DNA from: Candidatus Zhuqueibacterota bacterium
GTDB taxonomy: Bacteria > Zhuqueibacterota > JdFR-76 > DREG01
DNA: 64,000 nt
Reading direction: 5' to 3'
Assembly (NCBI GenBank): GCA_022566355.1
Contig: JADFJB010000003.1
Coordinates: 15,377 to 79,376, forward strand
In this document: one piece after another, positions 23,010 to 46,776 of the stretch
How the letters are laid out: each line of letters opens with the position of its first letter
Position numbering within the stretch: the first letter of the stretch is position 1
The notes under the pieces: model-generated
Told to the model about the DNA's origin: nothing
What the model saw: the letters and a program-made list of their open reading frames with translations, nothing else
The model's database searches: none
Made by a program: the position numbers and the translations under genes

Positions 23010-23135
23010 GGGATCACCTTCAATAAATACATATGGCACAATTTATAGTTATAAATTGTGAGAGATTTGGTTATCAAAAACAGTAGTTTCAATTAAAATA
23101 GGTATGTGGATTTTTTATGAGGTTGGATGGAAACA

Positions 23136-24107: not shown

Positions 24108-24313
24108 ATATATTCCTTTTTATAAATTTTAAGGGCATTTAATATTATCGAGATTTTCAGGATATTATCAAGTATAAATAATTTTAATAGCTTTTTTTGA
24201 ATCTTGAATTGAACGAAATTGAGGATTATTGAGTTTAGTCATTTAATTCAAAAAGATATTCGACAAAATCTCGTTGCTTTTCATGACACTTAGGTTTACT
24301 TTTAAAAAAAACC

Positions 24314-25111: not shown

Positions 25112-25417
25112 AAAAAAACATTATTTAGCGATAGCTCGTTAATAATCCTAAGTAATGTAGGGGCGGTTATGATTTTTCCCATAGTAAATTAACATTGCAC
25201 AATAGCACTGTCTCCAATTATTTTAAGAAAATGTAATAATCTACTTGTGTCCTTACTTTTGAAACCATATATTAACGGATTCAAATGAACAGACATAGAG
25301 CTTCTTCAAACGCTCAATTTGAATTTGATTCAAAATCAAGATTAACATTTTCATGTTATGAATTACAATTTACTAGTTTACAATATTTTCTATAGAAACT
25401 GTTAGGAAGGGATTTCT

Positions 25418-26968
25418 ATGAAGAAACTTCGTATTGGTATTATCGATCTCGTTACCAAGGGACCTACAAAAGCATTGTGGGGGCGCGTTATGAACCCCAA
25501 TTTTGCCAGCATTATGCCCCAGGTGCTTGCCAAGTGGTGTGAAGATAGTGGCCATGACGTGAAGCTCGTGTGTTATACCGGTTTTGAGAATTTGACCGAA
25601 GAGTTACCGGATAAAGTTGATATCGTTTTTATTGGCGCTTTTACGCAAGCTGCACAATTAGCCTATTCTTTGAGTAATCTATTTCGCTCAAAGGGAGCAA
25701 TTACCGTACTGGGTGGTCCCCATGCCCGTTGTTATCCACAGGACGCACAAAAATACTTCGACTATGTTCTGGGATTTACAGATAAGTCAATCGTCAATGA
25801 AGTTTTACAAGATTGCTCACAAAATCGGCCAATGGGTGTTTATCTAGAGGCTTCGCAACAACCACAAACACTGCCCGGCGTAAAAGAGCGCTGGAAATAT
25901 ATAGAGCAGACGCTCGATAAAGCCCCATTTATCAAGATTGTTCCGATGATTGGAAGTTTGGGTTGTCCTTATACTTGCAGCTTTTGTATCGATTCGATAG
26001 TACCTTATCAAACCTTAGATTTTGATGTGATCAAGGAAGATTTGCGGTTTCTGTTAACTAAGTTTAAACGGCCGATCGTTGGATGGCATGATCCAAACTT
26101 TGGGATTCGGTTCGATGATTATATGGGTGCGATTGAAGAAGCCATACCCCCCGACAGTATTGATTTTATAGCGGAAAGCAGTTTGTCGCTTTTGTCTGAA
26201 CCCCATATGCAAAGGTTACAAAAAAATGGATTTAAAGCACTTTTGCCTGGCATTGAATCCTGGTATGATATGGGAAACAAATCGAAAACCGGTAAATTGA
26301 TGGGATTGGATAAACTCAATAAAATCTCGGATCATGTTAATATGCTATTAAGGTATGCTCCCTATATTCAGGCCAATTTTGTGCTCGGACTTGACGTTGA
26401 CGAGGGACCGGATCCGTTTGAACTTACCAAACAATTTTTAGATAGGTCACCGGGCGCTTTCCCAGCGTATTCCCTGCTTTCGGCTTTTGGAAAAGCAGCG
26501 CCTCTCAACCTCGACTACCAGAGAGAAAACCGGGTCCTACCCTTCCCATTCATTTTTCTCAACAATAATCATGCAATGAATGTAAAACCGAAAAACTATG
26601 AATGGCCTGAATTCTACGATTACGTGATTGATGTTACCAGGCATGCATTTTCCTGGCCTCGGATTTATAAACGGTTCAAAGCTGCACGCGGCTATATTCC
26701 AAAATGGATGAACTTTGTCAGGGCAGTGTCGTCTGAAGGATTTGGCAGAATAAAATACTACTCGAAAGTACGCCAATTGCTGGACGAAGACCGGCAGTTT
26801 CGCAGCTATTTCGAACAAGAGACTACCGTTCTGCCAAAATTTTACATGGATCAGGTAAAAGTATCATTAGGCCCATTATTTGAATGGCTGCCGGAAGGCG
26901 CTTTGTTTCATGATCCCCATGCCTATCTGAAATCAGAAGAAGAATTGGCTGTTAGAAAAAGGGCTTAG
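25418..26968 (+). CDS. B12-binding domain radical SAM enzyme
   Basis: N-terminal B12-binding-like Rossmann segment (RIGIIDLV...DVKLVCYTGFEN...DIVFIGAF) followed by the CPYTCSFC (CX3CX2C) radical SAM cluster motif. Confidence 0.85.
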   Translation: MKKLRIGIIDLVTKGPTKALWGRVMNPNFASIMPQVLAKWCEDSGHDVKLVCYTGFENLTEELPDKVDIVFIGAFTQAAQLAYSLSNLFRSKGAITVLGGPHARCYPQDAQKYFDYVLGFTDKSIVNEVLQDCSQNRPMGVYLEASQQPQTLPGVKERWKYIEQTLDKAPFIKIVPMIGSLGCPYTCSFCIDSIVPYQTLDFDVIKEDLRFLLTKFKRPIVGWHDPNFGIRFDDYMGAIEEAIPPDSIDFIAESSLSLLSEPHMQRLQKNGFKALLPGIESWYDMGNKSKTGKLMGLDKLNKISDHVNMLLRYAPYIQANFVLGLDVDEGPDPFELTKQFLDRSPGAFPAYSLLSAFGKAAPLNLDYQRENRVLPFPFIFLNNNHAMNVKPKNYEWPEFYDYVIDVTRHAFSWPRIYKRFKAARGYIPKWMNFVRAVSSEGFGRIKYYSKVRQLLDEDRQFRSYFEQETTVLPKFYMDQVKVSLGPLFEWLPEGALFHDPHAYLKSEEELAVRKRA

Positions 26969-27729: not shown

Positions 27730-30655
27730 ATGATAGGTAAAACAATATCTCATTACAAAATCCTCGAAAAGCTCGGCAGTGGCGGCATGGGTGTGGTTTA
27801 CAAAGCCCAGGACCTAAAACTCGACCGCTTCGTCGCCCTTAAATTTCTGCCGCCACACATCAGCGCAGATGGGGATGAAAAGAAACGTTTTATACACGAA
27901 GCCAAGGCGGCATCTGCTCTACAGCACAACAACATCTGCACCATCCATGAAATCGGAGAGACGGATGATGGGCAGATGTTCATTTGTATGGACTACTACG
28001 AAGGGGAAACCCTCAAGAAAAAGATCGAGCGCGGGCCTTTGAACCTGGAAGATGCAATCGATATTGCGATTCAAATTTCCCAGGGTTTGGCCAAGGCACA
28101 TTCCAAAGAAATCACCCATCGAGATATCAAGCCCGCAAATATTCTCATCACGGAAGAAAAGCAAGTCAAGATCGTCGACTTCGGACTGGCGAAGCTAGCC
28201 GGTCGGACAGTGCTTACCAAAGAAGGGACGACCATAGGAACGGTTGCCTACATGTCGCCTGAGCAGGCACAAGGTACGGAAGTGGACCATCGCACCGATA
28301 TTTGGGCATTAGGAGTAGTTTTGTATGAAATGCTTACTGGCAAGCAGCCGTTTGCAGGAGATTATGAACAGGCTGTGATGTATTCGATCATGAACGAAGA
28401 CGCCGAGCCGATTACGGGTTTGCGGACCGGTGTGCCGATGGAATTGGAGCGGATTGTTAACAAGTGTCTGGAGAAAACTCCGGGGAATCGCTACCAATCG
28501 GTTAATGAACTTATTGTGGACTTGCGGCGGATAAGAAAAGTTGCTAATCCCGAGAACGTTGCTCCTGCAGCTTACAAGAAGTTAGAAACGGCGAGTTTTA
28601 AAAAGCGAGCATTTATCTGGATTGGAGTTAGTCTTGCTGTCATTTTCACGGCAATTGCTGGTTATTTGTTTCTTGCTAGAGAAGCAAGCAGTCCAGAACG
28701 TATCCCCATTGCAGTTGTGGACGTCATAAATGAGACTGGTGAGAAGGAACTAGATGGATTTATCCGGTCTGCTCATTACATCATTAGAGCAATCGCGGCG
28801 ATTGTCTGTTCTCACTCGATCAAGACTATTTGACATTCTCAAGCAAATGGGCAAGCCGAACATCGAACAAATCGACGTGGAACTTGGGCGGGAGATTTGT
28901 AGGAAGGCAAACATTAACTTCCTGGCAATTGCCTCTATCAGAAAATTTGGCCGGGTTTATACACTTGACTTTAAGCTACTTGATACTAACAAGAACAGAT
29001 ATTTTCTGACCGCATCTGAAAACGGTGAAGGGCACGAGAGTATCCCTGATTTGATTGACAAACTGGCAAAAAGAATACGGCAAGGTTTTAAGGAGAAATC
29101 TAGCGAAATTCAGGCTGAAAGCCAAGCTGTTACAGAATTAACGACTTCAAATTTGGAGGCATATCGATATTATAATCTTGGCGAAACGCTCTTGAGTCAA
29201 TTCAAATATAGAGAAGCTGCTGAAGAGTTCAAAAGAGCCGTCACCCTGGACTCGACATTTGCTCTTGCTCATTTCCGGTTGGCTTTTGCTAAACAGTATG
29301 GTGGTATGGGAGGGGACAAGGAAGCTATGCGGATGGCCATAAAATACATCGACAAAGTGCCTGAAAAAGAGCATTTTTTGATCAGGGCACAAGATGCATG
29401 GTTTAATAATAGACGGGAAAAGTCATACACACTGTATCAGGAAGTTTTGAAAATATATCCTCAGGAGAAGGAAGCACTCCTTCAAATTGCCGAATATATG
29501 TTGCACCATACTTTGGATCCAATTTCCGCACTACAATATTTTGAGAAATCGGTCGATGCAGATCCTGGCTATGGGGATGGCCTGGGACATCTAATTTATC
29601 TGAATCACGCTCTAAAAAGACACGATAAGGCAATCGAATATGCACTGCAGTTTGTTGATTTGCATCCGGGCGAGGCATCGTATCGCAGATTAGGAGAGAC
29701 TTACTGCTTTGCTGGTCAATTTAGCAAGGCAGAAGAAGTATTGAATAGAGCCTTAGAACTATTCCCCCGAAGCCCAGGGCTAGTTATCACTAAGGCGAAT
29801 ATCCCAGTCTTTAAGGAGAGTTATGAGACTGCAAAAGCTCAGATCACTGTGTTTCTATTAGATGCCAATTCCATATCGGAGCGAAGAATGGGTTCTCGAT
29901 ACCTGGCCGACTTATATGCTTATCAGGGAAAATATAAAGAAATTGAAGCAGTGTTTGACAAGATTATCGGGTTGGACTCGATGTCAGATCCAGATGCCAG
30001 GCTAAGATTTGATTACGCGGAAAAGGCATGGTGGCTTGCAGTCGGAAGGGGCGATGGAAACGCTGCTAAAACGGAAATTGAGAAGGCAAAAAGGATCGGA
30101 GGCCAACAAATCTCCTGGTTCTTTATGTCTCTTTTGCGAACTTATTTGCTTTTGGGCGAATTTGATGCTGCCGATTCTAGTTATTCGGCTGCAATCGCTT
30201 TAGCTGGTGAGGAAATGCATCCTTTTAGGTCGCACCTGATTAATGGGTATAAATACAAATCTCGCCAGGAATTTGGCAAGGCTGCTGCCGAGTTTGAAAA
30301 GTGGATAGAAATTAGAGGCTCGTTTAACTTTTGGGACAAAGTATTTTATTTATACGAACTTGCAGGTTGTTATTTTAGCTTAGGCGATTACAAGAAAGCG
30401 ATTGAAACCATCGCCAATATGCAAGGAATTTATATAACCTTTACGCCTAACAATAATTTACCTAGCTCACGTGGCGCCGTTTATCCGAGGGGCTTCCATC
30501 TTCTCGGCAAGATCTATGAGAAACAAGGTGAACCTAAGCGTGCCATCGAAAACTACGAAAAATTCCTCGAAATCTGGAAAAACGCCGACGAAGATTTGCC
30601 GGATTTGATCGATGCGAAGGCGAGGCTGGCGAGATTGAAGGAAAACTCGAAGTAA
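27730..30655 (+). CDS. Hanks-type Ser/Thr protein kinase - TM - TPR-repeat sensor protein, split by a 1-nt frameshift at TTT 28759-28761
   Basis: Kinase motifs GSGGMGVVYKA, HRDIKPANIL, DFGLAK, GTVAYMSPE. A TM helix (IWIGVSLAVIFTAIAGYLFL). The second ORF (28754..30655) continues ...ELDG|LSGLLITSLEQSRRLSVLTR, the canonical post-TM segment of this kinase class, and then TPR repeats. A TTT to TT correction fuses them into about 975 aa. Confidence 0.8.
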
Positions 30656-34463: not shown

Positions 34464-35396
34464 ATGAATAGTAAAATAAAAAACCAGGTCTATTTGTTTT
34501 TTGTGTTGATTGTCTCTGCATGCAGCTTTGCAATAGCGGACGAGAAAACAAATTCAACTCCAAGTGAGCAGTTTAAATCCTATTGGTACCAAGGTAAAGC
34601 TGAGCTTACGCGCTACAAACTCGACCAGGCGCGCTATGGAGAAATCCATACGGGAGATGCGGTATTGATTTTCGTGACCGAAGATTTCCTGAAATACGAA
34701 CAGGTAAAAAAGGAATTTGGTGATAGTAAGAATTATACTTCTGTTCTCAAGTTGAACGCAACCCGGAAATTTTATACCGGAATTTATCCATATTCAACCA
34801 TGGTTTCGGTATTCACACCAGTTGATTTGCATAACGATCCAAAAACATTAAAAGTCACGAGTTCTAACCAGGAATGGTGCGGCCAAACTTTTACGCAAAT
34901 GAATCTTAGAGGCCGTAATTATGAAGTCCAACTTCACTCCTATTTCCAAAACGAAGCCGATCAGAACTTTAAGATAAAATCTGTTCTTTTGGAAGATGAA
35001 GTTTGGACCCGTATCCGAATATCGCCTGAATCTTTACCAAAAGGAGATATCGAAATAATTCCCGGGTTGTTATTTTCCCGGTTTCGTCATACAAAAAGTA
35101 AAGTGGAAAAGGCGTCAGCAAATTTAACAGATTTGACGGATAATTCTCTTTCCGATCATCCACTGCAGGTTTATACCATCGAATACAGTGAATTGAAACG
35201 CAGGCTCTCAATCACCTTCGAAAAGGATTTTCCCCATACGATCGTAGCCTGGGAAGAGACACAACCGAGTGGATTTGGCAGGAATGCAAAATCTTTAACA
35301 ACACGAGCGCTACGCACCCATTCGATCTTTACAGATTATTGGTCTAAGAATGCTGTGGCCGATTCGACATTTAGAATTCAATTAGGTTTAGAGTGA
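34464..35396 (+). CDS. hypothetical lipoprotein
   Basis: Signal peptide with lipobox-like LIVSACS. 310 aa with no recognised catalytic motif. Confidence 0.55.
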   Translation: MNSKIKNQVYLFFVLIVSACSFAIADEKTNSTPSEQFKSYWYQGKAELTRYKLDQARYGEIHTGDAVLIFVTEDFLKYEQVKKEFGDSKNYTSVLKLNATRKFYTGIYPYSTMVSVFTPVDLHNDPKTLKVTSSNQEWCGQTFTQMNLRGRNYEVQLHSYFQNEADQNFKIKSVLLEDEVWTRIRISPESLPKGDIEIIPGLLFSRFRHTKSKVEKASANLTDLTDNSLSDHPLQVYTIEYSELKRRLSITFEKDFPHTIVAWEETQPSGFGRNAKSLTTRALRTHSIFTDYWSKNAVADSTFRIQLGLE

Positions 35397-35441
35397 AAAA
35401 GAAACAAAACGAACAACACTGAAAAAAATATAATATGATTG

Positions 35442-35581
35442 ACGTGAGTTCGATATATTTAATGGTAATGAAAATATGCAAAATTACCAGTCTTCGACGA
35501 GTTTATCCTGAGCATGAAGGGCTCAGGCTGCTGAATTTAAGCCATGGTGAGCAGAGTCGAACCATGAATTCACTTATGTCG
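35442..35581 (+). promoter_or_regulatory. candidate structured 5' leader: 12-bp long-range inverted repeat (ACGTGAGTTCGA / TCGAACTCACGT) enclosing two to three local hairpins
   Basis: Stems CCTGAGC/GCTCAGG, CTGCTGA/TGAGCAG and CCATGG/CCATG. Ends about 20 nt before the decarboxylase start codon. Confidence 0.35.
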
Positions 35582-35602
35582 AACTCACGTTATAATTAGG
35601 AA

Positions 35603-37081
35603 ATGATGAATTCTTCTAATAATCATGGCGATATGCCAGCCGAGGACTTTCGTAAATATGGCTACCAGTTAATCGATTGGATTGCAGATTTTTTTGCTGA
35701 AATCGATAAACACGCAGTCCTTCCGAATATTCAACCTGGTGATATTGTTAATAAATTACCCCATAGACCGCCGGTATCGTCCGAATCGATGGATAAGATT
35801 TTATCGGATATTGATAAAGTGATTATGCCCGGCATGACTCATTGGAATCATCCTAATTTCTTCGCTTACTTTTCTTCCAGTGGCTCGGCTCCCGGAGTGT
35901 TAGGAGAATTAATTGGCTCGGCTTTCAATATCAATGGCATGGTATGGCAATCCTGTCCATCATCGACCGAATTGGAAAAAGTGACAATGGATTGGCTGCG
36001 CCAATTATTGGGTCTTCCGGAAGAATATTGGGGCATCATTTACGACACGGCATCGACCAGTAATCTTCATGCAATCGCGGCTGCTCGGGAACAGTTGACT
36101 GATCTGAAACTCAGGGAAAAAGGAATGTGTGGCAGAACGGATGTACCGCGACTGAGAATTTATCTTTCCGAACATGCTCATTCTTCGGTGGATAAAGCTG
36201 CCATCACATTGGGTTTTGGCATGGATTCAATTTGCAAGATCCCTGTTGATGAAGCTTTCAGGATGAAGCCAGCATTATTGCAGGAAGCAATCCAGGCTGA
36301 TCGCAGCAAAGGGTGGCGGCCGTTTTGTGTCGTGGCAACTATTGGGACGACATCAACCACGAGTGTAGATCCGACTTCTGAAATAGCCGATATTTGTGAG
36401 CGTGAAAATTTGTGGCTGCATGTCGATGCGGCATATGGCGGTTCCGCTGCAATCCTGCCGGAAAAACGGGATCTGTTTTATGGTTGGGAACGAGCCGATT
36501 CGATTGTGATGAATCCGCATAAATGGATGTTTGTACCAATCGACTTAAGTGCATTTTATACGAGAAAACCTGCGTTATTACGCCAGGCATTCAGCTTAGT
36601 GCCGGAATACCTGAAAACCGAACATGACGAAGTAACGGACAACTTTATGGATTACGGATTTCAACTTGGCCGACGATTTCGATCGTTAAAACTATGGTTT
36701 GTACTTCGTTACTTTGGTCAGGAAGGATTGGCTAGCCGGATTCGTTACCACCTGGAATTAGCCAAAGAATTCATCCAATGGGTGGAGGATCACCCCTCGT
36801 TTGAAGTCATGGCGCCGGCGCCATTTAGTACGGTCTGTTTTCGATTTCATCCTGAAGGAACGGATGATGAAAATAAACTCAATCAGCTAAATGAAAAACT
36901 ATTACAGGCGATCAATGCAACGCATCAAATCTTCTTATCCCATACAAAACTTGGAGAAACTTATATTATTCGTTTTGCAATTTCGAATTTGAGAACCGAG
37001 AAAGAACATGTTGAAAGAGCTTGGAAACTTATCCAAACTGAAGCGCAAAAGTTGATTGATAGCTTCATGTATACAAGTTAA
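35603..37081 (+). CDS. PLP-dependent aromatic-L-amino-acid (tyrosine/tryptophan/DOPA-type) decarboxylase, group II
   Basis: Pyridoxal_deC family: HWNHPNFFAYF, SSSGSAPGVLGE and the PLP-Lys motif NPHKWMFVP. 492 aa. Confidence 0.9.
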   Translation: MMNSSNNHGDMPAEDFRKYGYQLIDWIADFFAEIDKHAVLPNIQPGDIVNKLPHRPPVSSESMDKILSDIDKVIMPGMTHWNHPNFFAYFSSSGSAPGVLGELIGSAFNINGMVWQSCPSSTELEKVTMDWLRQLLGLPEEYWGIIYDTASTSNLHAIAAAREQLTDLKLREKGMCGRTDVPRLRIYLSEHAHSSVDKAAITLGFGMDSICKIPVDEAFRMKPALLQEAIQADRSKGWRPFCVVATIGTTSTTSVDPTSEIADICERENLWLHVDAAYGGSAAILPEKRDLFYGWERADSIVMNPHKWMFVPIDLSAFYTRKPALLRQAFSLVPEYLKTEHDEVTDNFMDYGFQLGRRFRSLKLWFVLRYFGQEGLASRIRYHLELAKEFIQWVEDHPSFEVMAPAPFSTVCFRFHPEGTDDENKLNQLNEKLLQAINATHQIFLSHTKLGETYIIRFAISNLRTEKEHVERAWKLIQTEAQKLIDSFMYTS

Positions 37082-37085
37082 GCAA

Positions 37086-38015
37086 ATGGGACTTCGCGTT
37101 TTATTGTGGATATTTTTCCTGGCTGTTTTGTGGGGGCCTTCATTTCTGTTCATTAAAGTAGCTGTTCTTGAAATCCCGCCGTTTACCTTAATGACTGCTC
37201 GAGTAGGAATCGCCTCGCTAATTTTATATATCATACTACGCGCGAGCGGTAAAAAACTGACGCTTAATCCAGCAACCTGGCGGTCTTTTGCATTTATGGC
37301 TGTATTTGCCAATGCACTTCCTTTCGTCCTGTTTGGCTGGGGAGAAATCCATGTTGACAGTGCCCTGGCCGCCGTGTTAAATGGAACAACGCCAATTTTT
37401 ACTATCATTATTGCTCATTTTTTTATAAGTGATGATCGGTTGAATCTTGTAAAAATTATCGGAATTATCTTTGGATTCCTGGGAGTTGTCATTTTGTTTT
37501 TCCCATTTTTATCGAAAGGATTAACACTGGATACTCTCGGAGTTTTCGCCTTCATAGCCGCAGCTTTATGTTATGGAATATCCACAGTTTATGCCCGCAA
37601 GAAACTTCGGGGTTTACCGCCTTTAGTAGCGCCAACCGCTCAATTAATTTTGGCTACGATCTGTTTACTTCCATTTTCACTTATTATCGATCGACCATTT
37701 GAAATGAATTTTCCTTCCTGGAATGCAATCAATTCGGTATTGGCCTTGGCCATTTTTGGTTCTGCCATCGCATTTGCAACATTCTATCATATTCTGGAAA
37801 TGACTTCTGCCACGAATCTATCCATGGTTACTTACTTGATTCCGGTGATCGGTGTAATTCTCGGAGTTGTTTTTCTGGATGAAAAATTGGGCTGGTATGT
37901 TTATGTTGGTTGTGCGATTATTGTGTTGGGCATTATGGTTGTAAATGGCGTGTTTAATCAGTTTCTGGGCAGGAAGGTTGAAAATGAAATCATTGCAGCT
38001 AAACCTTCAGAATAA
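37086..38015 (+). CDS. DMT-superfamily (EamA-like) transporter
   Basis: 10 TM segments with a duplicated EamA architecture. Starts 5 bp after the decarboxylase stop. The track ORF starts at 37056; the Met at 37086 is preferred. Confidence 0.85.
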   Translation: MGLRVLLWIFFLAVLWGPSFLFIKVAVLEIPPFTLMTARVGIASLILYIILRASGKKLTLNPATWRSFAFMAVFANALPFVLFGWGEIHVDSALAAVLNGTTPIFTIIIAHFFISDDRLNLVKIIGIIFGFLGVVILFFPFLSKGLTLDTLGVFAFIAAALCYGISTVYARKKLRGLPPLVAPTAQLILATICLLPFSLIIDRPFEMNFPSWNAINSVLALAIFGSAIAFATFYHILEMTSATNLSMVTYLIPVIGVILGVVFLDEKLGWYVYVGCAIIVLGIMVVNGVFNQFLGRKVENEIIAAKPSE

Positions 38016-38068
38016 AAGGCACAGGCCACAAAGAAATAAAATGTTAAAATAGTAGGTAAGTAAATCCA

Positions 38069-38500
38069 ATGAAAATTGCAATGGCTGCGGATCACGCTGG
38101 GTATGAACTTAAAGAACAAATTAAAACTTATTTAATCGAAAAAGGACATGAGGTCAAAGATTTTGGCACGAATTCCTCTGAATCTGTCGATTATCCACTT
38201 TTCATACGGCCTGTTGCCGAAGCGGTTGTTAAAGGCGAGTTCGAACGAGGAATTATTCTGGGTGGCTCCGGCAATGGGGAAGCCATCGTTGCGAATCGAC
38301 TGAAAGGGGTTCGGTGTACCCTATGCTGGAATTCGAAGTCGGCGAGGCTGGCCCGAGAGCATAACGATGCTAATATCTTGTCACTGGGCGCGCGGTTAAT
38401 CAACCTTGAAACTGCAAAAAGTATTGTTGATATTTGGCTGACTACCGAATTCGTTGGGGGAAGGCATGAAAGAAGAATTAAACAAATTGATAATAATTAA
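38069..38500 (+). CDS. rpiB: ribose-5-phosphate isomerase B (RpiB/LacA/LacB family)
   Basis: MKIAMAADHAGYELKE...GILIGGSGNGEAIVANR... is the canonical RpiB pattern, including the Cys in RCTLCWN. Confidence 0.9.
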   Translation: MKIAMAADHAGYELKEQIKTYLIEKGHEVKDFGTNSSESVDYPLFIRPVAEAVVKGEFERGIILGGSGNGEAIVANRLKGVRCTLCWNSKSARLAREHNDANILSLGARLINLETAKSIVDIWLTTEFVGGRHERRIKQIDNN

Positions 38501-38978
38501 TTAGGTTTGACGATGGAGAATCTAGATCGAATAGCAAGCGTTTTAATATTGTCCGTTATCCAGGATTGTATTTTGACAACAATTTCAAATTGTATAAAAA
38601 TGAAATCAATCAAAGAACCCTTTATCCCTTAGTGAACTTCGTTTCCTTCGTGGTGAAATAATACAAGTTCTCTCTATTTTCATTCACTTATGCTATACAG
38701 TGTAAAACTTTGTTTTTTGAACAAACTTTTTAACAGATGTTTCTTTTTTGACAGGATTAACAAGATATACTGGATTTTTATCCTGATTATCCTGTCTAAA
38801 AATGAACATTTAGATTAGTAAAATATATTTTTTGTTTGCAGCCTTGAGTTGCGCTGTGATTTAAGTTAAGTAAATCATCCATGTAATAATTATGAATTTG
38901 TTGGTTTGCTAATTGATTTTATGCACGGGAAAAGAATTATCTTGATCCTAAAATTTTAAATCTTTAAATTATTATCCT

Positions 38979-39215
38979 ATGGCATATGTGGTGAGCAAAA
39001 AATTAGATTGTCGATGGTTATACGACCCACTTCCAATTATCCGCTTAAGTTGTGCTGTTCGACAATTAAATGCTGGAGAAATCATTGAAATGATATCAAA
39101 TGATCCTGCAGCTTTGTATGATATGAAAGCATGGAGTAAATTAACCGGCCATACCGTACTAGAAACAACAAATCGCCCAGACCATACTTGTTTTTTAATT
39201 CAAAAAAAGATATAG
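38979..39215 (+). CDS. TusA-like sulfur-carrier family protein, with Asp in place of the canonical CPxP cysteine
   Basis: LDCRWLYDPLPIIRL...EMISNDPAALYDMKAW matches the TusA fold pattern. The canonical Cys position reads D, and a Cys occurs 5 residues earlier. Confidence 0.65.
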   Translation: MAYVVSKKLDCRWLYDPLPIIRLSCAVRQLNAGEIIEMISNDPAALYDMKAWSKLTGHTVLETTNRPDHTCFLIQKKI

Positions 39216-39224
39216 GAGATTTTC

Positions 39225-39464
39225 ATGGCTGAATATGAAATCAAAGAAACCTTGGATTGTAGTGGATTACTATGTTCAGAGCCGGTTATAAAAACAAGCA
39301 AAAAAATTAAAGAGTTAGAAGTAGGTGATGTATTTGAAATGATTTCCACCGACCCGGGTGCAATGCCCGATATGCAAGCATGGGCAAACCAGACCAAACA
39401 TGAACTGCTGGAGTCTAGTGAGGATGGGTCGCTGTACCGTTTTGTAATCAAAAAAACTCATTGA
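39225..39464 (+). CDS. tusA: TusA-family sulfurtransferase/sulfur carrier
   Basis: LDCSGLLCSEPVIKT matches the TusA LDxxGLxCPxP signature with Cys conserved. ...EMISTDPGAMPDMQAW. Confidence 0.7.
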   Translation: MAEYEIKETLDCSGLLCSEPVIKTSKKIKELEVGDVFEMISTDPGAMPDMQAWANQTKHELLESSEDGSLYRFVIKKTH

Positions 39465-39485
39465 ATTTTAAATGGAGGCAAAACC

Positions 39486-40007
39486 ATGTCAAAAGAAAAT
39501 GGCACTCGTCGCCTTGCTTTAATCTCTAGTAAAGGAACTTTAGATTGGGCGTACCCACCATTTATTATGGCGAGCGCTGCCGGAGCGATGGATTGGGAGG
39601 TGGCAATTTTTTATACTTTTTATGGTTTACCGCTTTTAAAGAAAAAATTGGATGCAACAGTTACCCCGATTGGTAATCCTGCCATGCCCATGAAAATGCC
39701 TTTTGGCCCGAAAGGTTTTCAAAACATTGATTGGAATATCCCAAATCTTTTGATGAGCAATATTCCCGGTTTCGACAATGTTGCTACAAGTTTAATGAAA
39801 CAGACCTTTAAGAAAAAAGGTGTTGCCACAATTGAAGAGCTGCGGGAAATGTGTATTGAGATGGACAACGTGCGCTTGATCGGTTGCCAGATGACGATGG
39901 ATGTTTTCGGTTTTAAACGAGAAGATTTTATAGATAAATGTGAAATTGGTGGTGCGGCGACTTTTTTGGAATACGCCGCAGATGCGGATGTAAATCTATT
40001 TATTTAG
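39486..40007 (+). CDS. DsrE/DsrF-like (DsrE2-type) sulfur-relay family protein
   Basis: 173 aa. DsrE-like Rossmann beta-alpha pattern (RLALISSKG...AAGAMDWEVAIFYTFYGL) with a conserved Cys (IGCQMTMD). Immediately downstream of two tusA-like genes, as in tusA-dsrE2 clusters. The family call is motif- and context-based. Confidence 0.5.
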   Translation: MSKENGTRRLALISSKGTLDWAYPPFIMASAAGAMDWEVAIFYTFYGLPLLKKKLDATVTPIGNPAMPMKMPFGPKGFQNIDWNIPNLLMSNIPGFDNVATSLMKQTFKKKGVATIEELREMCIEMDNVRLIGCQMTMDVFGFKREDFIDKCEIGGAATFLEYAADADVNLFI

Positions 40008-40071
40008 GTATCACACTTTCTTTGATTAGGATATGATACAAAATAGTAGGGTATACAGATTTTCTTGGAGA

Positions 40072-40170
40072 TGCTCACAGAAGGGTCGCTTTTTTCGCGA
40101 AGCTCAAGCAGCCGTATCTCTTAATCACGCTAACATTGCCGCGATTTATGAAGTTGATGAAAATCGATAA
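40072..40170 (+). pseudogene. relic of a Ser/Thr kinase gene (subdomain II-III fragment)
   Basis: Translates to ...RFFREAQAAVSLNHANIAAIYEVDENR*, the kinase consensus RFxREAxxxxxLxHPNIVxxYxVxE. It stands alone in intergenic DNA at the left edge of the GC-rich patch. Confidence 0.5.
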
Positions 40171-40279
40171 CCAGGCTTTTATCGCAAAGAAGGAGGCAAA
40201 GAAGATATTCTCGGAAGGTTGAGAAACGATTAAGCGTTACATGCGTGTTGTAGAGCAACCTGATTGAAAGACAGAGAAA

Positions 40280-41503
40280 ATGACCAAACAACAAGCACAA
40301 AAGACGGAGTGGACGGTCCGGGAACAGAAGGAACATCTGGATCGCCGTGCGAACTTCTTTATTCTTGATGTGCGCAACCGCGACGAGTTCTCCGTCTGGA
40401 AGATCGAGGGGTGGAAAACACCGCCCACATTGAACGTACCTTACTTCGAGATGTATGAGAAGGGCGGCAAGGACGACTTCATCGAGTCGATAATTGCCTA
40501 TATCGAGATCGAGTTGCTTGGACAGTTACCCAAGGACCGACCGATCTTGGCCGTTTGTTCCAAGGGCAACACCTCGGCATACGTGGCCGAAGGCCTATGT
40601 CAGCTCGGTTACGACGCATTCAACCTACAGGGTGGCATGCAGGCATGGGGCAACTTCTACGAGATCAACCCAGTCACCGAAAGCCGCGAGTTGAGCGTCT
40701 ACCAGATCAGCCGGCCAGCGCGTGGCTGCTTGAGTTACATCATCGTAAGCGATGGCCAAGCGGTGGTCATCGACCCGTTGCGCCATATCGAAACATACCT
40801 CGACATCGCGAGCGCGAAAGGATTCCAAATTGAACACATCATGGAGACCCACGGCCATGCCGATCATATTAGCGGTGGGTCAAAGCTGGCCAAACAGCTC
40901 AACCGACGGTACTACCTCCACCCTTACGACGGCATCCACCTCCTTGATATGCTACCAGCTCGCATTCCTTTCGAGTACCTGCGTGACGGTCAGGCGCTCT
41001 CGGTCGGCAAGGCGAAAATCCAAACCCTACATATCCCAGGTCACACACTTGGTAATGTGGCCTATCTTCTGAATGAAGCGTACTTGTTCACCGGTGACAG
41101 CATCTTTATCAACTCGATCGCCCGTCCGGATCTCGGTGGACGTGGGGAGACCTGGGCGGGGCTGCACTATCACTCCCTAAGAAGACTACTCGATTTTCCC
41201 GACACGACGTTTGTGCTACCGGGTCACTTCAGCACTCCACGCGAAGCCAACGTCGCCGGGCTTTTCATGGCTTCCTTGGGCGAGCTAAAGGAGAAGAACG
41301 AGGGCCTGCACATGGCCCAGAAGAGCGAAGATGCGTTTGTACAGTACATTTTGGGAAGCCTACCGGAGTTCCCGTCGCAGTACGTTGAGATCAAGCGGGT
41401 AAACGCGGGCCTGCTTCTCGTCGACGAAGTTAAGGCGAGTGAGCTTGAGCTAGGAAAAAACGTCTGCGCGTTGGCGCAAGCCTACGAAACAGAGTCGACT
41501 TGA
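40280..41503 (+). CDS. rhodanese domain - metallo-beta-lactamase fold fusion protein (persulfide dioxygenase-like); GC-rich, probably horizontally acquired
   Basis: N-terminal rhodanese with catalytic Cys loop (AVCSKGNTS). MBL motifs HIMETHGHADHISGG, HIPGHTLGN and GDSIF. The nucleotide composition is clearly GC-richer than the flanking DNA. The many long overlapping spurious ORFs in the track here are typical of GC-rich DNA. Confidence 0.8.
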   Translation: MTKQQAQKTEWTVREQKEHLDRRANFFILDVRNRDEFSVWKIEGWKTPPTLNVPYFEMYEKGGKDDFIESIIAYIEIELLGQLPKDRPILAVCSKGNTSAYVAEGLCQLGYDAFNLQGGMQAWGNFYEINPVTESRELSVYQISRPARGCLSYIIVSDGQAVVIDPLRHIETYLDIASAKGFQIEHIMETHGHADHISGGSKLAKQLNRRYYLHPYDGIHLLDMLPARIPFEYLRDGQALSVGKAKIQTLHIPGHTLGNVAYLLNEAYLFTGDSIFINSIARPDLGGRGETWAGLHYHSLRRLLDFPDTTFVLPGHFSTPREANVAGLFMASLGELKEKNEGLHMAQKSEDAFVQYILGSLPEFPSQYVEIKRVNAGLLLVDEVKASELELGKNVCALAQAYETEST

Positions 41504-41542
41504 GCACCGCATGAGTTGAGGAATCATAAGAAGGGATTAAGT

Positions 41543-41608
41543 ATGAGAATGACATTCGACAAGGTTCTGGATGCACGCGGGCTCGCCTGCCCCATGATCG
41601 GATATTAA
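41543..41608 (+). pseudogene. truncated tusA-like start (22 codons: MRMTFDKVLDARGLACPMIGY*)
   Basis: A canonical TusA N-terminal motif xLDxRGLxCP, cut short by a stop. Lies in the GC-rich patch directly after the rhodanese-MBL gene. Confidence 0.5.
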
Positions 41609-42170
41609 AACCAAGGCATATGCAACAATGGCCGAGGATTCTACTAAACTAATAGTATTTACATATAGTATTTACATAAAAAAATAGATGGTACCAGGCG
41701 TTGGGGGATAAATTCCATACAAGAGTTATTTTCGTGATACAAAGATTAAAAATCGATATTCTTTGATATTTGAGAGGATGCAAAGGCACAATTAGGAAAA
41801 TTACGGGGACAATTATTAAATGATCGGCAAACCATCCTCCACTACAAATTTCTCTCCAAACGCGACGACCACAATTGAAACAATTGGGTAGTTTCAAATG
41901 CGACAAAATTATCTATTTACACAAATATACAAACAAAGTCAAAAAATCATTGATTTTTAACTTATCAATTTGTAAAATTCAATATCGTAGAAACGGAAAT
42001 ATCTCCTGACTAAAATCAAAAACTATCTTGTAATAACCATATCATGATCGGCAAGACAATATTTCACTAAAAAAATTCAAATATCGCGTGCTGGCCAAGG
42101 TATTTCAGATATTTTCAAGATACTTAAGCAGAGCTTGGTCAAAACAATGAAAACTAACCTGGATCGTTAA

Positions 42171-43841
42171 ATGCAATTTGGATTCATTATCGACAACCGT
42201 AGATGTATTGGTTGCCACGCTTGTACTGTAGCATGTAAAGCAGAACATGATACTCCTCTGGGTGTCAATCGAACCTGGGTTAAATATATTGAGAAGGGTG
42301 AATTCCCAAACACACGCCGCTTGTTTTCGGTCATGCGCTGCAACCACTGTGCGGATGCGCCCTGTGTGGAAATTTGTCCTACCGGGTCCTTATTCACTCG
42401 TGAAGACGGCATCGTCGATTTTGATAAACGTCGCTGTATCGGCTGTAAAGCTTGCATGCAAGCCTGTCCCTACGACGCGCTTTACATCGACCCTGAAACG
42501 GATACAGCGGCAAAATGTAACTATTGCGCCCATCGAGTAGATATTGGTTTAGAGCCGGCTTGTGTAAATGTTTGTCCAACTCATGCGATCATTTCCGGTG
42601 ATATGGACGATCCGCAATCGGAAATATCTCAACTATTGGCTCACGAGAAAGTCACGGCAAGGAAAGTCGAAAAAGGAACTCAACCTAAATTGTTCTATAT
42701 CGATGGAGATGAGGCGTCTTTAAATCCAGCTGCAACAGATCAATCGAGTGATTATATGTGGAACTCACAAATCTCCGGAGTCGGCCATTTTGCCAGCTAT
42801 GCTGAAAATCGGATTGCAAGTTCTGATCCACAAGAATTGCTCAATCAATTAACCGGCAGTAACGGTGATGATAAACAATGGCTATCCAGTGAGAAAAACC
42901 CCAAAGAAAAAGTGCTAGTTCCTGAAAGCCAAGGTAGCGAAATTATCCAACAAAAAGCCAAAGATGTTGTCGAAGAAACAACCAAGCGAGTTTATGATAG
43001 TCCGGGTAAAGGAGTCTTGTGGGGTTGGGAAGTGCCGGCTTATATCTGGACCAAAGCGGTTTCAACGGGTGCATTCCTGGTTCCTTTCCTGGCATTCGTG
43101 GGTGGTTTTTCTTCGGTTAGCGACCCAGTTCAATGGCTTGGATTGAGCCTGGGATTGTTATTTCTTGTTTTAACCAATATTCTGCTAATTAAGGACTTGG
43201 ATCAGCCATTTAGATTTGCTTATGTTTTGCTAAGACCCCAGTGGCGATCCTGGCTGGTCCGTGGTGGCTATGCAATCACTTTTTATGGTGGATTGTTGAC
43301 CGCCGGGATTATTACAAAGTTAAGCGGATTAACCAATCTGGAAATTTTGGTAAAATGGCTTTGTGCAATCGTCGCAGTTATAACTTCTGTTTATACCGCA
43401 TTCTTACTTGCCCAGGCTAAAGGCCGCGATTTTTGGCAGAGTCCGATCTTACCGTTTCATATGATCGTTCACACAATGCTAGCTGGTGCTGCTATTTTTG
43501 CTTTTCTGTCACCCATAGCCGGATTTGATCAAAGTTGGCATACTTATTTGGATCATGTTTTTTACACGTTTATTATTCTAAACTTACTGATTATTAGTGT
43601 GGAGTTATTTACACCACACCCGACAGCAGATTCAAAGGTCGTTGTAGATATGATAATACGTGGACGGTTCAAGAGGCTATTCAAAGTGGGTGTTGTCATT
43701 ATGGGCAATATCGTTCCATTATTCTTTGTTTTGTTGGGCAGCCCGGAATTATTGCCGTTTGTGGGTTTGTTGATTTTGATGGGGATCTATTTCACAGAAC
43801 ATATCTGGGTGCTGGCGCCGCAACTGGTTCCATTAAGTTAG
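42171..43841 (+). CDS. fusion of 4Fe-4S ferredoxin-type electron-transfer subunit (PsrB/TtrB/DmsB-like) with NrfD/PsrC-like integral membrane quinone-interacting subunit
   Basis: N-terminal 4 Cys clusters (CIGCHACTVAC, CNHCADAPCVEICP, CIGCKACMQACP, CNYCAHRVDIGLEPACVNVCP) followed by about 300 aa with 8 or more hydrophobic helices. No signal or TAT peptide. Confidence 0.8.
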   Translation: MQFGFIIDNRRCIGCHACTVACKAEHDTPLGVNRTWVKYIEKGEFPNTRRLFSVMRCNHCADAPCVEICPTGSLFTREDGIVDFDKRRCIGCKACMQACPYDALYIDPETDTAAKCNYCAHRVDIGLEPACVNVCPTHAIISGDMDDPQSEISQLLAHEKVTARKVEKGTQPKLFYIDGDEASLNPAATDQSSDYMWNSQISGVGHFASYAENRIASSDPQELLNQLTGSNGDDKQWLSSEKNPKEKVLVPESQGSEIIQQKAKDVVEETTKRVYDSPGKGVLWGWEVPAYIWTKAVSTGAFLVPFLAFVGGFSSVSDPVQWLGLSLGLLFLVLTNILLIKDLDQPFRFAYVLLRPQWRSWLVRGGYAITFYGGLLTAGIITKLSGLTNLEILVKWLCAIVAVITSVYTAFLLAQAKGRDFWQSPILPFHMIVHTMLAGAAIFAFLSPIAGFDQSWHTYLDHVFYTFIILNLLIISVELFTPHPTADSKVVVDMIIRGRFKRLFKVGVVIMGNIVPLFFVLLGSPELLPFVGLLILMGIYFTEHIWVLAPQLVPLS

Positions 43842-43914
43842 GAAAGCGCCTAAAGCGCCAAAATTGCCAAATGCTTATTATCATATATTTTTTGGTTACC
43901 AATAGGAGAATTTA

Positions 43915-46776
43915 ATGTCCGACCGGAATTCGGGAAATCTAATTGAAAAAATAGCCGAGAAACTGCACCTCATTCCAAATCTACATACAGAAACTGGACC
44001 CGATCTTCAAAGTTTAACCGAAGCTGGCAAGCTAACGGATTTTCCTCCTATCGAAAAGTGGGACGATTGGGTTGAATATGAAGCGAAAAGCTGGCCGCGA
44101 CGCGACCCCAAGCATTATATGATCATACCAACGACATGCTTTAATTGTGAAGCCGGCTGTGGTTTACTAAGCTACGTCGACAAAGAGACTATGACTGTCC
44201 GAAAATTTGAGGGCAATCCTTATCATCCAGCCAGCCGAGGGCGGAATTGTGCTAAGGGGCCGGCAACGATCAATCAAATTAATGATGAGGACAGAATCCT
44301 TTATCCGATGAAACGAAAAGGCAAGCGCGGGGAAGGTGGCTGGGATCGCGTTTCGTGGGATGAAGTTTTGGATGATTTTTCGGGACGAATACGAAAAGCG
44401 CTTCAGGAGAAACGAAATAATGAAGTCGTTTATCACGTTGGTCGACCGGGTCATGAGGGTTATATGGATCGAATACTACAGTCCTGGGGTGTGGATGGCC
44501 ACAACAGCCACACCAATATTTGTTCTGCCGGTGCGCGATTTGGTTATGCGATTTGGCATGGTTTCGACCGGCCTTCTCCGGATCATGCCAATGCAAAATT
44601 AATATTGCTGATCTCTGCTCATCTTGAGTCCGGACATTATTTTAACCCTCATGCACAAAGAATAATAGAAGGATTAATGAACGGTTGCAAATTGGTGGTT
44701 ATGGATCCACGGCTCTCCAATACCGCCAGTATGGCTGATTATTGGCTGCCTACTTATCCAGGCAGTGAAGCGGCCGTGCTTTTGGCCATGGCAAAAGTGA
44801 TTCTCGATGAAAGCCTTTTCGATGAAAAATATTTACATGATTGGGTAAACTGGCAAGAGTTTCTGCAAAAAGAACATCCAACTGTAGAAGTAAACTTTGC
44901 TAATTTTATTCGATTGCTGAAAGAAACCTACCAGGAATACACACCGGAATTCGCCGCTAACGAAAGCGGAATTGATGCCGAGACCATTATTGAGGTCGCA
45001 CGCAAAATAGGTGAAGCCGGAAGTCGATTTTCATCCCATAATTGGCGCAGTGCGGGTAGCGGAAATTTAGGTGGCTGGGCTGTTTCGCGCTGTTTGCATT
45101 TTTTGAATGTGCTCACGGGTAGTGTCGGAACAGTGGGGGGGACGTCGCCAAGCGGTTGGAACAAATTTAAACCAACTGTCTTTGATAAGCCACCCGCACA
45201 AAAATTCTGGAATGAATTGCATTTTCCAAACGAATATCCGCTCGCACATTACGAAATGAGTTTTCTATTGCCGCATTTCTTGAAAGAGGGGAGAAGTAAA
45301 CTGGATGTGTATTTCACCCGGGTTTTTAATCCGGTATGGTCTTTTCCTGATGGTTTTACCTGGATTGAAGTATTACAGGATGAAAGCAAAATTGGCCTGC
45401 ACGCTGCCTTAACACCCACCTGGAATGAAACAGCGTTTTTTGCGGATTATGTTCTGCCGATGGGCCATGCAAGCGAGCGGCATGACTTGATCAGCTACGA
45501 GACCCATTCCGGCATGTGGATTGCTTTTCGTCAACCTGTTTTGCGTGAGGCTGCTCGAAAAATGGGTAATCCTGTCCAATTTACTTATGAGGCTAACCCT
45601 GGAGAAGTGTGGGAGGAGGACGAGTTTTGGGTCGAATTATCCTGGCGGATTGATCCGGATGGGAGCCTGGGGATTAAAAAACATTTTATGTCCCCTTATA
45701 GAAAGGGAGAAAAAATCACCATTGATGAATATTATCAATTCGTTTTTGATAATGTACCTGGGTTGCCGGAAAAAGCGGCTGAAAAAAAGTTGACTCCACT
45801 GGAATATATGCGAATTTACGGCGCTTTTGAGGTGGAGAAAACTTCATATCATAAGCATCTAAAACCGCTAACAAAAGAAGAATTAAAGAAAACTAAGGTG
45901 GATACAAAAACGGGAACGATTAAAACGAAAGAAAAAATTGTCGGTGTTTTTGCGGATGGAAAATCTTATGCCGGATTCCCGACGCCTTCTAAAAAGCAAG
46001 AGTTTTATTCCCAAACGATGGTCGATTGGAATTGGCCAGAATATAAAATTCCAATTTATATAAAAAGTCATGTTCATCCGGATCAAATGGATCGAAGCAA
46101 AGGAGAGTTCCCATTGGTGCCAACTTTTCGGTTACCGACCCTGATTCATTCCCGATCTGGTAATGCCAAATGGCTTATGGAAATTTCGAATCGCAATCCA
46201 ATTTGGATGCATACTTCAGATGGAAAAGACCTGGGAATAAAGACAGGGGATTTGCTGCGGGTAAATACAGACATCGGTTATTTTGTCGATCGGGTTTGGC
46301 TAACAGAAGGGATGAAACCGGGCATCGTGGCGTGTTCTCACCATCTCGGCAGGTGGCGGCGGCCACAAGATGCTAAGGGAAATCGATGGGCAACCAATTT
46401 GGTTTCCATCAAACAAATGAAAAATGGCAAATGGAAAATGAGGCAATTGGATGGCATCCGCCCCTATAAAAGCAACGATCCGGATTCGTCCCGTATCTTT
46501 TGGAGCGATGGCGGTGTACATCAAAATCTCACTTTCCCTGTTCATCCGGATCCAGTCAGCGGTATGCATTGCTGGCATCAAAAGGTGAGAATTGAGAAAG
46601 CGCATCCGGAAGATAAATATGGCGATGTGGTGGTCGATACCAATCGCTCCTTTGAAATTTATAAAGAATGGTTGAAAAAAACTCGTCCGGCGCCAGGTCC
46701 AGGAGGATTGAGAAGGCCGCTTTGGCTGAATAGACCGCTCCGTCCATCGGAAGAGATGTTTTACATCGATTTATAA
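43915..46776 (+). CDS. molybdopterin (bis-MGD) oxidoreductase catalytic subunit, Psr/Phs/Ttr/Soe-like, without twin-arginine signal
   Basis: 953 aa. N-terminal FeS motif CFNCEAGCG...C. Molybdopterin and C-terminal molybdop-binding domain (GIVACSHHLGRW). No RRxFLK motif in the first 70 residues. Confidence 0.9.
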   Translation: MSDRNSGNLIEKIAEKLHLIPNLHTETGPDLQSLTEAGKLTDFPPIEKWDDWVEYEAKSWPRRDPKHYMIIPTTCFNCEAGCGLLSYVDKETMTVRKFEGNPYHPASRGRNCAKGPATINQINDEDRILYPMKRKGKRGEGGWDRVSWDEVLDDFSGRIRKALQEKRNNEVVYHVGRPGHEGYMDRILQSWGVDGHNSHTNICSAGARFGYAIWHGFDRPSPDHANAKLILLISAHLESGHYFNPHAQRIIEGLMNGCKLVVMDPRLSNTASMADYWLPTYPGSEAAVLLAMAKVILDESLFDEKYLHDWVNWQEFLQKEHPTVEVNFANFIRLLKETYQEYTPEFAANESGIDAETIIEVARKIGEAGSRFSSHNWRSAGSGNLGGWAVSRCLHFLNVLTGSVGTVGGTSPSGWNKFKPTVFDKPPAQKFWNELHFPNEYPLAHYEMSFLLPHFLKEGRSKLDVYFTRVFNPVWSFPDGFTWIEVLQDESKIGLHAALTPTWNETAFFADYVLPMGHASERHDLISYETHSGMWIAFRQPVLREAARKMGNPVQFTYEANPGEVWEEDEFWVELSWRIDPDGSLGIKKHFMSPYRKGEKITIDEYYQFVFDNVPGLPEKAAEKKLTPLEYMRIYGAFEVEKTSYHKHLKPLTKEELKKTKVDTKTGTIKTKEKIVGVFADGKSYAGFPTPSKKQEFYSQTMVDWNWPEYKIPIYIKSHVHPDQMDRSKGEFPLVPTFRLPTLIHSRSGNAKWLMEISNRNPIWMHTSDGKDLGIKTGDLLRVNTDIGYFVDRVWLTEGMKPGIVACSHHLGRWRRPQDAKGNRWATNLVSIKQMKNGKWKMRQLDGIRPYKSNDPDSSRIFWSDGGVHQNLTFPVHPDPVSGMHCWHQKVRIEKAHPEDKYGDVVVDTNRSFEIYKEWLKKTRPAPGPGGLRRPLWLNRPLRPSEEMFYIDL

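Follow-up and report, generated by a model that had tools for sequence, protein, structure and literature searches.

Type II shdr clusters comprise the genes shdrC1B1AHB3-etfAB-emo together with lbpA and genes for lipoate assembly, and the genes for TusA and DsrE are known accessories of such clusters (Tanabe et al. 2024, PMC11094781). Enzymes of the persulfide dioxygenase (PDO) type are encoded with homologues of TusA and DsrE in the yrk cluster of Bacillus, and with a fused carrier, CstA, in Staphylococcus aureus (PMC9918477). The locus described here touches on both kinds of system. It lies in a stretch of 64,000 nucleotides (hereafter the window, with positions counted from its first letter) of contig JADFJB010000003.1 from a Candidatus Zhuqueibacterota bacterium. 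Its subject is a gene for a protein with a rhodanese and a metallo-beta-lactamase (MBL) domain, called here the rhodanese-MBL gene, which is followed by the truncated beginning of a tusA gene and stands between a native tusA-tusA-dsrE2 block and the gene for a 4Fe-4S/NrfD fusion protein (Fer4-NrfD). Most probably, a foreign rhodanese-MBL/tusA fragment here fills the place of a lost 18-kb type II sHdr cluster.

Compositionally atypical genes that have been transferred undergo amelioration, a concept associated with Lawrence and Ochman. The present case would be a clean and well-bounded transfer between phyla, into an uncultured phylum, and thus a known kind of event with a local twist. What makes it of use is that the donor-type cassette, the breakpoint within tusA, the bias of amelioration and the state of the site before the transfer can be read directly.

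Composition and relatives of the rhodanese-MBL gene

An earlier note on this DNA had described the gene as richer in guanine and cytosine (GC) than every neighbour, and the measurements bear this out. Mean GC is 40.7% for the window and 40.6% (standard deviation, SD, 3.8) for 1.2-kb sub-windows, which exceed 50% solely at 40001-41800, making the patch the top outlier of the 64 kb. The rhodanese-MBL open reading frame (ORF) has a GC content of 0.547, as against 0.413±0.032 (maximum 0.482) for the remaining 45 long ORFs, and at third codon positions (GC3) it reaches 0.679, some 7 SD above the other ORFs of the window (0.375±0.041, maximum 0.505). Since GC3 is high and the value for second positions (GC2) is an ordinary 0.375, with 0.586 at first positions (GC1), the excess sits at silent positions. 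A two-boundary maximum-likelihood segmentation of GC over 38500-43500 placed the best GC-rich segment at 40303-41601 (0.548 inside, 0.387 outside, log-likelihood ratio 50.7), with support intervals of 40280-40318 for its left and 41509-41644 for its right edge. The codon usage of the gene lies 6.6 SD from that of host genes (z=6.6), and its distance to the housekeeping genes of L011, one of the donor-type contigs discussed below, is 0.94, the host-gene minimum being reported as 1.27. The comparison that the earlier note had proposed, of 40170-41610 with the background, thus returns a strong outlier in GC, GC3 and codon usage, departing from what is usual in the recipient, which favours transfer. 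The remark that long spurious nested ORFs occur only here did not hold, as nested ORFs of at least 100 amino acids are also found at 11780-12232, 44279-44596 and 61686-62012. After the rhodanese-MBL gene, the ORF that departs most from the rest of the window is a kinase ORF at 27730-28833, with a GC3 of 0.505 and a codon-usage distance of 1.16, which makes it the host gene nearest to donor-type usage.

The closest non-self proteins are 76–83% identical in amino acids, and among 5.8 billion proteins none falls between 83% and 99%. Contigs of the close relatives have about 60% GC and the order rhodanese-MBL, a gap of 37–38 nt, tusA (83–84 amino acids) and dsrE2 (192–203 amino acids); in these donor-type contigs the rhodanese-MBL gene does not differ in GC content from the genes beside it, among them pheS, pheT, rplT and infC in L011. 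By blastn, window positions 40280-41596 align with L015 and L011 at 84% nucleotide identity, the match beginning at the ATG and stopping 18 codons into tusA, and the gene by itself is 84–85% identical in nucleotides and 81–83% in amino acids to those of L015, L011 and L017. The gap between rhodanese-MBL and tusA measures 39 nt in the window, compared with 37 nt in L011, L015 and L013. The single named genome among the close relatives is L017, a metagenome-assembled genome (MAG) of Candidatus Methylomirabilota with 82% amino acid identity and the same order of genes in its cassette. In all 53 genome loci the GC content of the homologue is within ±0.04 of that of its locus, the window gene standing at +0.14; tusA lies directly downstream of the homologue in 28 of these loci, and dsrE2 is present too in 22. 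AT-rich homologues, from Chlamydiae and others, are at most 55% identical. The further check of the earlier note, a search for close relatives carrying the gene in AT-rich composition, found none, the nearest residing in the contigs of about 60% GC, and this result also favours transfer.

A native gene, with GC raised by selection on protein composition or expression, could appeal to the somewhat high GC1 of many host genes and to the native-looking kinase ORF at 27730-28833 with its GC3 of 0.505. In the rhodanese-MBL gene, however, the excess lies at third positions with GC2 ordinary, and codon usage is that of donor housekeeping genes. Moreover, the nearest homologues belong to another phylum and match at 84% through the spacer and the tusA start, and homologues elsewhere always share the GC content of their own genome. 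A native origin therefore deserves next to no credence.

The genes on either side have other affinities. In NCBI the host proteins carry the name candidate division KSB1, those of rhodanese-MBL and Fer4-NrfD having consecutive accessions on a contig of 93.9 kb, and the nearest relatives of the flanking genes are from KSB1 and Calditrichota; the host has about 41% GC. The closest homologues of the rhodanese-MBL gene thus belong to a different lineage from those of the genes that flank it. Substitutions were polarised with L015, L011 and L017 as the ingroup, together with the window, and L014 as the outgroup. The window branch carries 38 changes from GC to AT, 4 from AT to GC and 8 of the neutral class, set against a summed 41:25 (GC>AT:AT>GC) on the terminal donor branches (38:4 versus 41:25, Fisher p=0.0015). 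The gene is slowly ameliorating towards host composition. Third positions have diverged by about 6% on the window branch, and the tusA stub differs by 5.5%; from this similarity, neutral evolution of the stub would go back no further than a fairly recent event. Horizontal acquisition of the patch from a lineage of about 60% GC is strongly supported, and composition, donor identity and amelioration all agree with the earlier proposal of a foreign fragment carrying rhodanese-MBL and the beginning of its cognate tusA.

The abrupt switch in composition, within an assembly of the metagenome type, might also be put down to GC-rich reads joined to an AT-rich contig during assembly or binning. The exact rhodanese-MBL protein occurs on at least 18 contigs, though, and the 10 that were fetched, independently assembled from samples of three projects, share the gene order, are 100% identical over 40008-40279, 41504-41680 and 41681-42170, which takes in the junctions, and at least 99.7% identical over the gene. 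The patch is, moreover, only 84% identical to its nearest GC-rich relatives, with the differences running 38:4 towards AT. A chimera is accordingly extremely improbable. L015, of donor type (rhodanese-MBL 83% identical), and L076, which is related to the host lineage (Fer4-NrfD 65%), both come from metagenome 3300037479 of the Joint Genome Institute (JGI), so donor-type and host-related lineages co-occur.

The site in related genomes

The sister lineage is represented by a 26.4-kb Logan contig of 41.2% GC (DsrE2 91%, Fer4-NrfD 79% identical), which was merged from two fetched halves, L070 and L071, before blastn. Window 34705-40005 is collinear with sister 1-4857, through genes for a pyridoxal phosphate (PLP)-decarboxylase, EamA, RpiB, tusA, tusA and dsrE2, and collinearity resumes between window 42170-45636 and sister 22846-26396, through Fer4-NrfD and molybdopterin oxidoreductase. 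The tusA-tusA-dsrE2 block is 80% identical in nucleotides up to 40005 and the downstream genes 75–78%. Between these stretches there are 17,988 bp in the sister and 2,164 bp in the window, and the rhodanese-MBL gene is absent from the syntenic site of the sister contig. The native block of the window is recognised by Pfam with 55 and 80 bits for TusA and 163 bits for DrsE_2, and by NCBIfam with 205.8 bits for DsrE2 (cutoff 210).

The interval in the sister begins with an LplA-like ligase, a small protein, a DsrE of 126 amino acids and LbpA. It continues with a ferredoxin-like protein (sHdrC1-type), a CCG protein (sHdrB1-type), a flavoprotein (sHdrA-type), two small proteins, a Fer4+CCG fusion (sHdrB3-type) and a second LbpA, and ends with radical-SAM genes resembling those for lipoyl synthase, a second LplA, EtfB, EtfA and a 699-amino-acid Fer4/CCG protein (EMO-like). 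By its precomputed Pfam content and gene order the contig fits the definition of a type II sHdr cluster, the sHdrH assignment being putative. Interspersed in the cluster are two genes of the 23S_rRNA_IVP family and a PDDEXK_3 gene (L071 10474-10851, L070 5487-5963 and L070 2799-3182), which are small and unrelated to sulfur metabolism. A tblastn search of the 64-kb window with 20 proteins of the sister cluster gave no match at E<1e-3, and a type II sHdr system is thus not found in the window. Relics of sHdr genes in the 2.16-kb segment were considered and rejected, the best tblastn matches, at E 0.012 or worse, being scattered.

In four further contigs, L072-L075 (DsrE2 87–89% identical), tusA-tusA-dsrE2 leads on to lplA, a small gene, dsrE and lbpA, and no kinase gene stands at the site in any relative examined. 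Because the sister and these four all have sHdr-cluster genes after tusA-tusA-dsrE2, loss of the cluster in the lineage of the window is the simplest explanation. The opposite polarity would have the sister lineage gain the 18 kb and the window preserve an older, cluster-free state that received the foreign gene. It would suit L076 and L077 (Fer4-NrfD 65–66% identical), which have no sHdr genes upstream of Fer4-NrfD, and also the variation among genomes in the interval from PLP-decarboxylase to Fer4-NrfD. Such a gain is nevertheless unlikely, given lplA, dsrE and lbpA directly after tusA-tusA-dsrE2 in four other related contigs and the host-like GC of the sister cluster (contig 41.2%); TusA/DsrE carriers are known shdr accessories (PMC11094781), and an insertion that fell exactly after dsrE2 and re-established this order would be unparsimonious. 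In L076 and L077 a PLP-decarboxylase gene lies near a Fer4-NrfD/molybdopterin/SulP module, with wholly different genes between: one of the two contigs encodes an S8 protease and an AraC regulator there, the other a metallophosphatase, an ATPase and a Toluene_X protein. Gene turnover has recurred in this interval, and the polarity of the 18-kb difference is therefore unproven.

Two observations concern the native genes upstream. The second host TusA (TusA2, 39225-39464) has C-S-E-P at residues 17-20 in the window lineage, as against C-P-M-P in the sister, L072 and L073. The 79 amino acids of this protein show only four changes specific to the lineage, two of which lie in the motif, and the changes in DsrE2 are all conservative; the switch in the motif may reflect relaxed selection or adaptation after loss of sHdr. 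Upstream of the first tusA there is variation within the species, L001 being without 37969-38711 (RpiB and part of an AT-rich spacer) and L002, L004 and L008 without 38565-38711, while L003 matches the window throughout.

Fragments around the gene

The features of the locus are collected in Table 1. The earlier note had recognised a truncated TusA start directly downstream, in GC-rich DNA, and this stub indeed matches the start of donor tusA at 51 of 54 nt over 41543-41596, all three differences being GC>AT. Its indels come after CCCATG and create the stop. Pfam TusA gives the stub 15.4 bits (cutoff 28.6), rising to 23.9 with the frameshift repaired, and past ~41613 no similarity to donor or host tusA exceeds shuffled controls (z at most 1.6). 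A complete TusA ORF has some 75–85 amino acids, a CPxP motif and the full fold; here there are 18 in-frame codons, ending in C-P-M, and the stub is a pseudogene. A tusA that continues beyond 41613 ('DIKTKAYATMAED...') was rejected, as the 8.5 bits gained in Pfam are explained by three codons up to 41613 and the DNA is at shuffled level. A hybrid of foreign and native tusA through homologous recombination was rejected too, there being no DNA similarity to donor or host tusA past that point. Because the stub is about 5% diverged and similarity is then lost abruptly at ~41613, the end is a breakpoint. Judged from its sequence, the stub is a dead remnant that ends sharply and not through erosion, and the view that both boundaries of the patch had decayed is not sustained.

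Table 1. Features in and around the replacement segment (window coordinates)
Feature	Position	Strand	Basis and remarks
Native sulfur-relay genes: tusA-like 38979-39215, tusA 39225-39464, dsrE2/E3-type 39486-40007	38979..40007	+	Pfam, NCBIfam, GC 36-41%
Replacement segment	40006..42169	.	2,164 bp, no counterpart in sister contig
AT-rich piece, origin unassigned	40008-40077		
Hanks-type Ser/Thr kinase orphan fragment	40078..40167	+	alphaC helix to beta4, ~30 codons, 43% GC, then stop
Piece between kinase fragment and rhodanese-MBL	40168-40279		without significant similarity to donor leaders
Rhodanese-MBL gene	40280..41503	+	intact, 407 amino acids, horizontal acquisition strongly supported; Pfam Rhodanese + Lactamase_B, donor identity, GC3 0.68
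Donor-derived spacer	41504..41542	+	within 84% blastn alignment 40280-41596
tusA 5' relic	41543..41613	+	18 in-frame codons, then 2-nt insertion and 1-nt deletion, stop 41606-41608
AT-rich non-coding stretch	41614..42169	.	32% GC, 556 bp, upstream of Fer4-NrfD gene
Native downstream genes: 4Fe-4S/NrfD fusion 42171-43841, molybdopterin oxidoreductase 43915-46776	42171..46776	+	Pfam, NCBIfam

For the piece upstream of the gene, an ad hoc hidden Markov model (HMM) of the kinase domain, made from the window kinase at 27730-28833 and six kinases of unrelated fetched loci, was run on 3,059 stop-free pieces of the six-frame translated window. The window kinase scored 409 bits and the piece at 40030-40167 came second with 23.8 bits (E 3.9e-6), covering HMM positions 47-76 of 273; the third-best piece had 4 bits. 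In a phmmer search against 1.84 billion proteins the 45-amino-acid ORF gave 44 matches at E<=0.001 (E 1e-7 to 1e-3), mostly of 50–60% identity over residues 16-44. All eight ordinary matches that were scanned are Pkinase proteins aligned at alphaC-beta4, and the best PDB matches are to residues 56-80 of PknB. The HMM, phmmer and PDB results thus agree with the orphan Hanks-kinase piece that had been noticed directly upstream. Pfam Pkinase has no match on the fragment, and a full catalytic domain, with Gly-rich loop, VAIK, HRD and DFG, is not present. Frameshifted continuations of the kinase ('QAFIA...' and 'GGKEDILGRL') were rejected, having at most 1 bit with the kinase HMM and nothing in Pfam.

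It had been supposed that the foreign fragment was inserted in or next to a resident kinase gene, with the kinase remains and the tusA stub decayed at its boundaries. The kinase fragment is real and has a host-like 43% GC, and the host does possess at least one Hanks kinase (27730-28833), 12 kb away. Nevertheless, the fragment is only 52% identical to that kinase and lies outside the GC-rich segment, and the six-frame search with the HMM found no further kinase piece in any frame on either side of the patch. The sister and L072-L075 have sHdr-cluster genes and no kinase after dsrE2, and the tusA stub, at about 5% divergence, runs up to a sharp breakpoint. Insertion in or next to a kinase gene is hence improbable. 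The window kinase ORF (367 amino acids) overlaps a TPR-repeat ORF at 28754-30655 (633 amino acids) by 80 nt in a different frame, and as kinase-TPR fusions of about 1,000 amino acids exist among the database matches (e.g. P0393), the two ORFs may represent a single gene that a frameshift has divided.

The stretch 41614-42169 has no similarity to any tusA, to the sister contig, the fetched loci, plasmids or phages, and none in Rfam. Neither flank of the patch is matched by anything in the 60 fetched loci, in the sister contig or elsewhere in the window, or among plasmids and phages; the flanks belong to no Rfam family and show no excess of terminators or promoters. Donor homology upstream of the ATG (40008-40279) was rejected, local alignments to donor leaders being at chance level; the score of one marginal match, to the L015 leader, was reached in 1 of 300 shuffles with five targets compared, and the donors share only 13–73 nt of leader among themselves. 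A perfect 13-bp tandem duplication (ATAGTATTTACAT x2, repeat family D13) is found at 41652-41677, about 40 nt past the donor homology, and TATTTACA motifs like this tandem repeat are found at 41914 and 42060. A 17-nt inverted repeat (39994-40010 / 41673-41689, 88% complementary) spans the interval from the dsrE2 stop to just past the tusA relic. As candidate terminal repeats, this and others were rejected, being short, AT-rich and indistinguishable from chance.

Gene product and reconstruction of the locus

In the rhodanese-MBL protein Pfam places the rhodanese domain at residues 14-124 and the MBL domain at 147-316. The N-terminal rhodanese has its catalytic Cys93 and the C-terminal MBL domain has H191xH193xD195H196 with the further ligands H255, D273 and H316; these eight residues and an RPDL motif are invariant in 20 family members, the window protein included. 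The ratio dN/dS is 0.20–0.21 for the window gene versus the donors, and 0.16–0.24 among the donors themselves. By these measures the gene is intact and under purifying selection, and a dN/dS of about 0.2 with the invariant residues kept would make it functional in the host. The best PDB matches of the MBL domain are 3TP9, a beta-lactamase/rhodanese protein of A. acidocaldarius (E 8e-29), and 3R2U from S. aureus (2e-24), which the PDB table calls only 'metallo-beta-lactamase family protein' and which we take to be CstB. Further matches are persulfide dioxygenases, including BpPRF and human ETHE1 (4YSB, 5VE3, 4CHL). NCBIfam returns GloB and Blh only, far under their cutoffs, and no equivalog. 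The protein is therefore predicted to oxidise or otherwise process carrier-bound sulfane sulfur in the manner of CstB and PDO enzymes, and its carriers in this host may be the resident TusA/DsrE2. The predicted function fits the conserved rhodanese-MBL, tusA, dsrE2 cassette, since PDO-type enzymes are co-encoded with TusA and DsrE homologues.

On the account considered most probable here, the ancestor would have had the order tusA-tusA-dsrE2, some 18 kb of type II sHdr, LbpA, lipoate-assembly, EtfAB and EMO genes, Fer4-NrfD and molybdopterin oxidoreductase. The window lineage would then have lost everything from the dsrE2 stop codon to the Fer4-NrfD start codon, a gap that a 2.16-kb mosaic would now occupy. 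Its core, at ~40280-41613, would be a piece of a rhodanese-MBL, tusA, dsrE2 cassette, cut ~23 codons into tusA, from a lineage of about 60% GC that has the Candidatus Methylomirabilota MAG as its nearest relative with a name. The kinase fragment and the 556-bp AT-rich stretch may be filler or co-captured DNA, joined by illegitimate recombination, a process suggested by the mosaic of unrelated short pieces that surrounds the donor core. Deletion and capture may have been one event or two. On this account the KSB1 population has lost the sHdr cluster from this locus but kept its TusA/DsrE carriers, which changes the annotation of its sulfur metabolism.

Several points weigh against this account. 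The true donor is unsampled, with dS to the nearest relatives at ~0.47–0.51, and the label Methylomirabilota comes from one MAG. No tRNA was found in the window, and no integrase, transposase or insertion sequence (IS) nearby, no convincing terminal repeats and no matches to plasmids or phages, so that the locus does not have the tRNA target, integrase or transposase and flanking repeats of a genomic island or mobile element. Loss here as opposed to gain in the sister is argued by parsimony over five related loci, and the more distant L076 and L077 have neither sHdr nor tusA/dsrE2 at the site. Likewise, sHdr might persist elsewhere in the host genome, the check having covered 64 kb, and the account offers no source for the kinase fragment or the AT-rich stretch. 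Finally, the assignment as a persulfide dioxygenase draws solely on the MBL domain, which is ~40% similar to 3TP9/CstB, with no NCBIfam equivalog.

A more far-reaching idea, and a rather doubtful one, is that a pathway was swapped in situ. After the loss of sHdr/LbpA, or in the course of it, the foreign rhodanese-PDO-type enzyme would have taken the position of that operon, fed by the resident TusA and DsrE2, and would serve O2-dependent oxidation or detoxification of persulfides; the CPMP to CSEP change of TusA2 would be an adaptation to the new partner, and the foreign tusA, being redundant, would have been shed. If the enzyme does work with the resident carriers, one module for the oxidation of sulfane sulfur would have been replaced by a non-orthologous one at the same locus.

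The locus can be compared with four known kinds of system. As in type II sHdr-LbpA clusters (PMC11094781), tusA-tusA-dsrE2 in the sister contig is directly followed by a set of the shdrC1B1A(H)B3 type with lbpA, lipoate-assembly genes, etfAB and an EMO-like gene, whereas the window keeps only the accessory tusA-tusA-dsrE2, with no sHdr, LbpA or Etf genes in its 64 kb. Like classical ameliorating transferred genes, it is atypical in GC3 and codon usage, phylogenetically incongruent and missing from the sister, and it shows directional GC>AT change. It has none of the machinery of an island (tRNA, integrase, IS or direct repeats), and consists of one gene and a stub in what would be a deletion scar. 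The CstB/YrkH-type persulfide dioxygenase-sulfurtransferases resemble the product in their fusion of MBL to rhodanese and in their genomic association with TusA and DsrE homologues, but the domain order is reversed, the rhodanese being N-terminal in the window protein and C-terminal in CstB/3TP9, and the motif is HxHxDH in the window protein as against HxHxDF in the aligned sequences of 3TP9 and 3R2U. There is a likeness, lastly, to the cassettes of GC-rich uncultured bacteria in L011, L015, L014 and L017, with which the locus shares the gene length of 407 amino acids, the start, the spacer of 37–39 nt and the first 18 codons of tusA. Compared with these, the window copy is cut ~23 codons into tusA, is without a dsrE2 of its own and resides in a KSB1 genome of 41% GC, and its GC3 has fallen to 0.68, from the 0.73–0.78 of the GC-rich cassettes.

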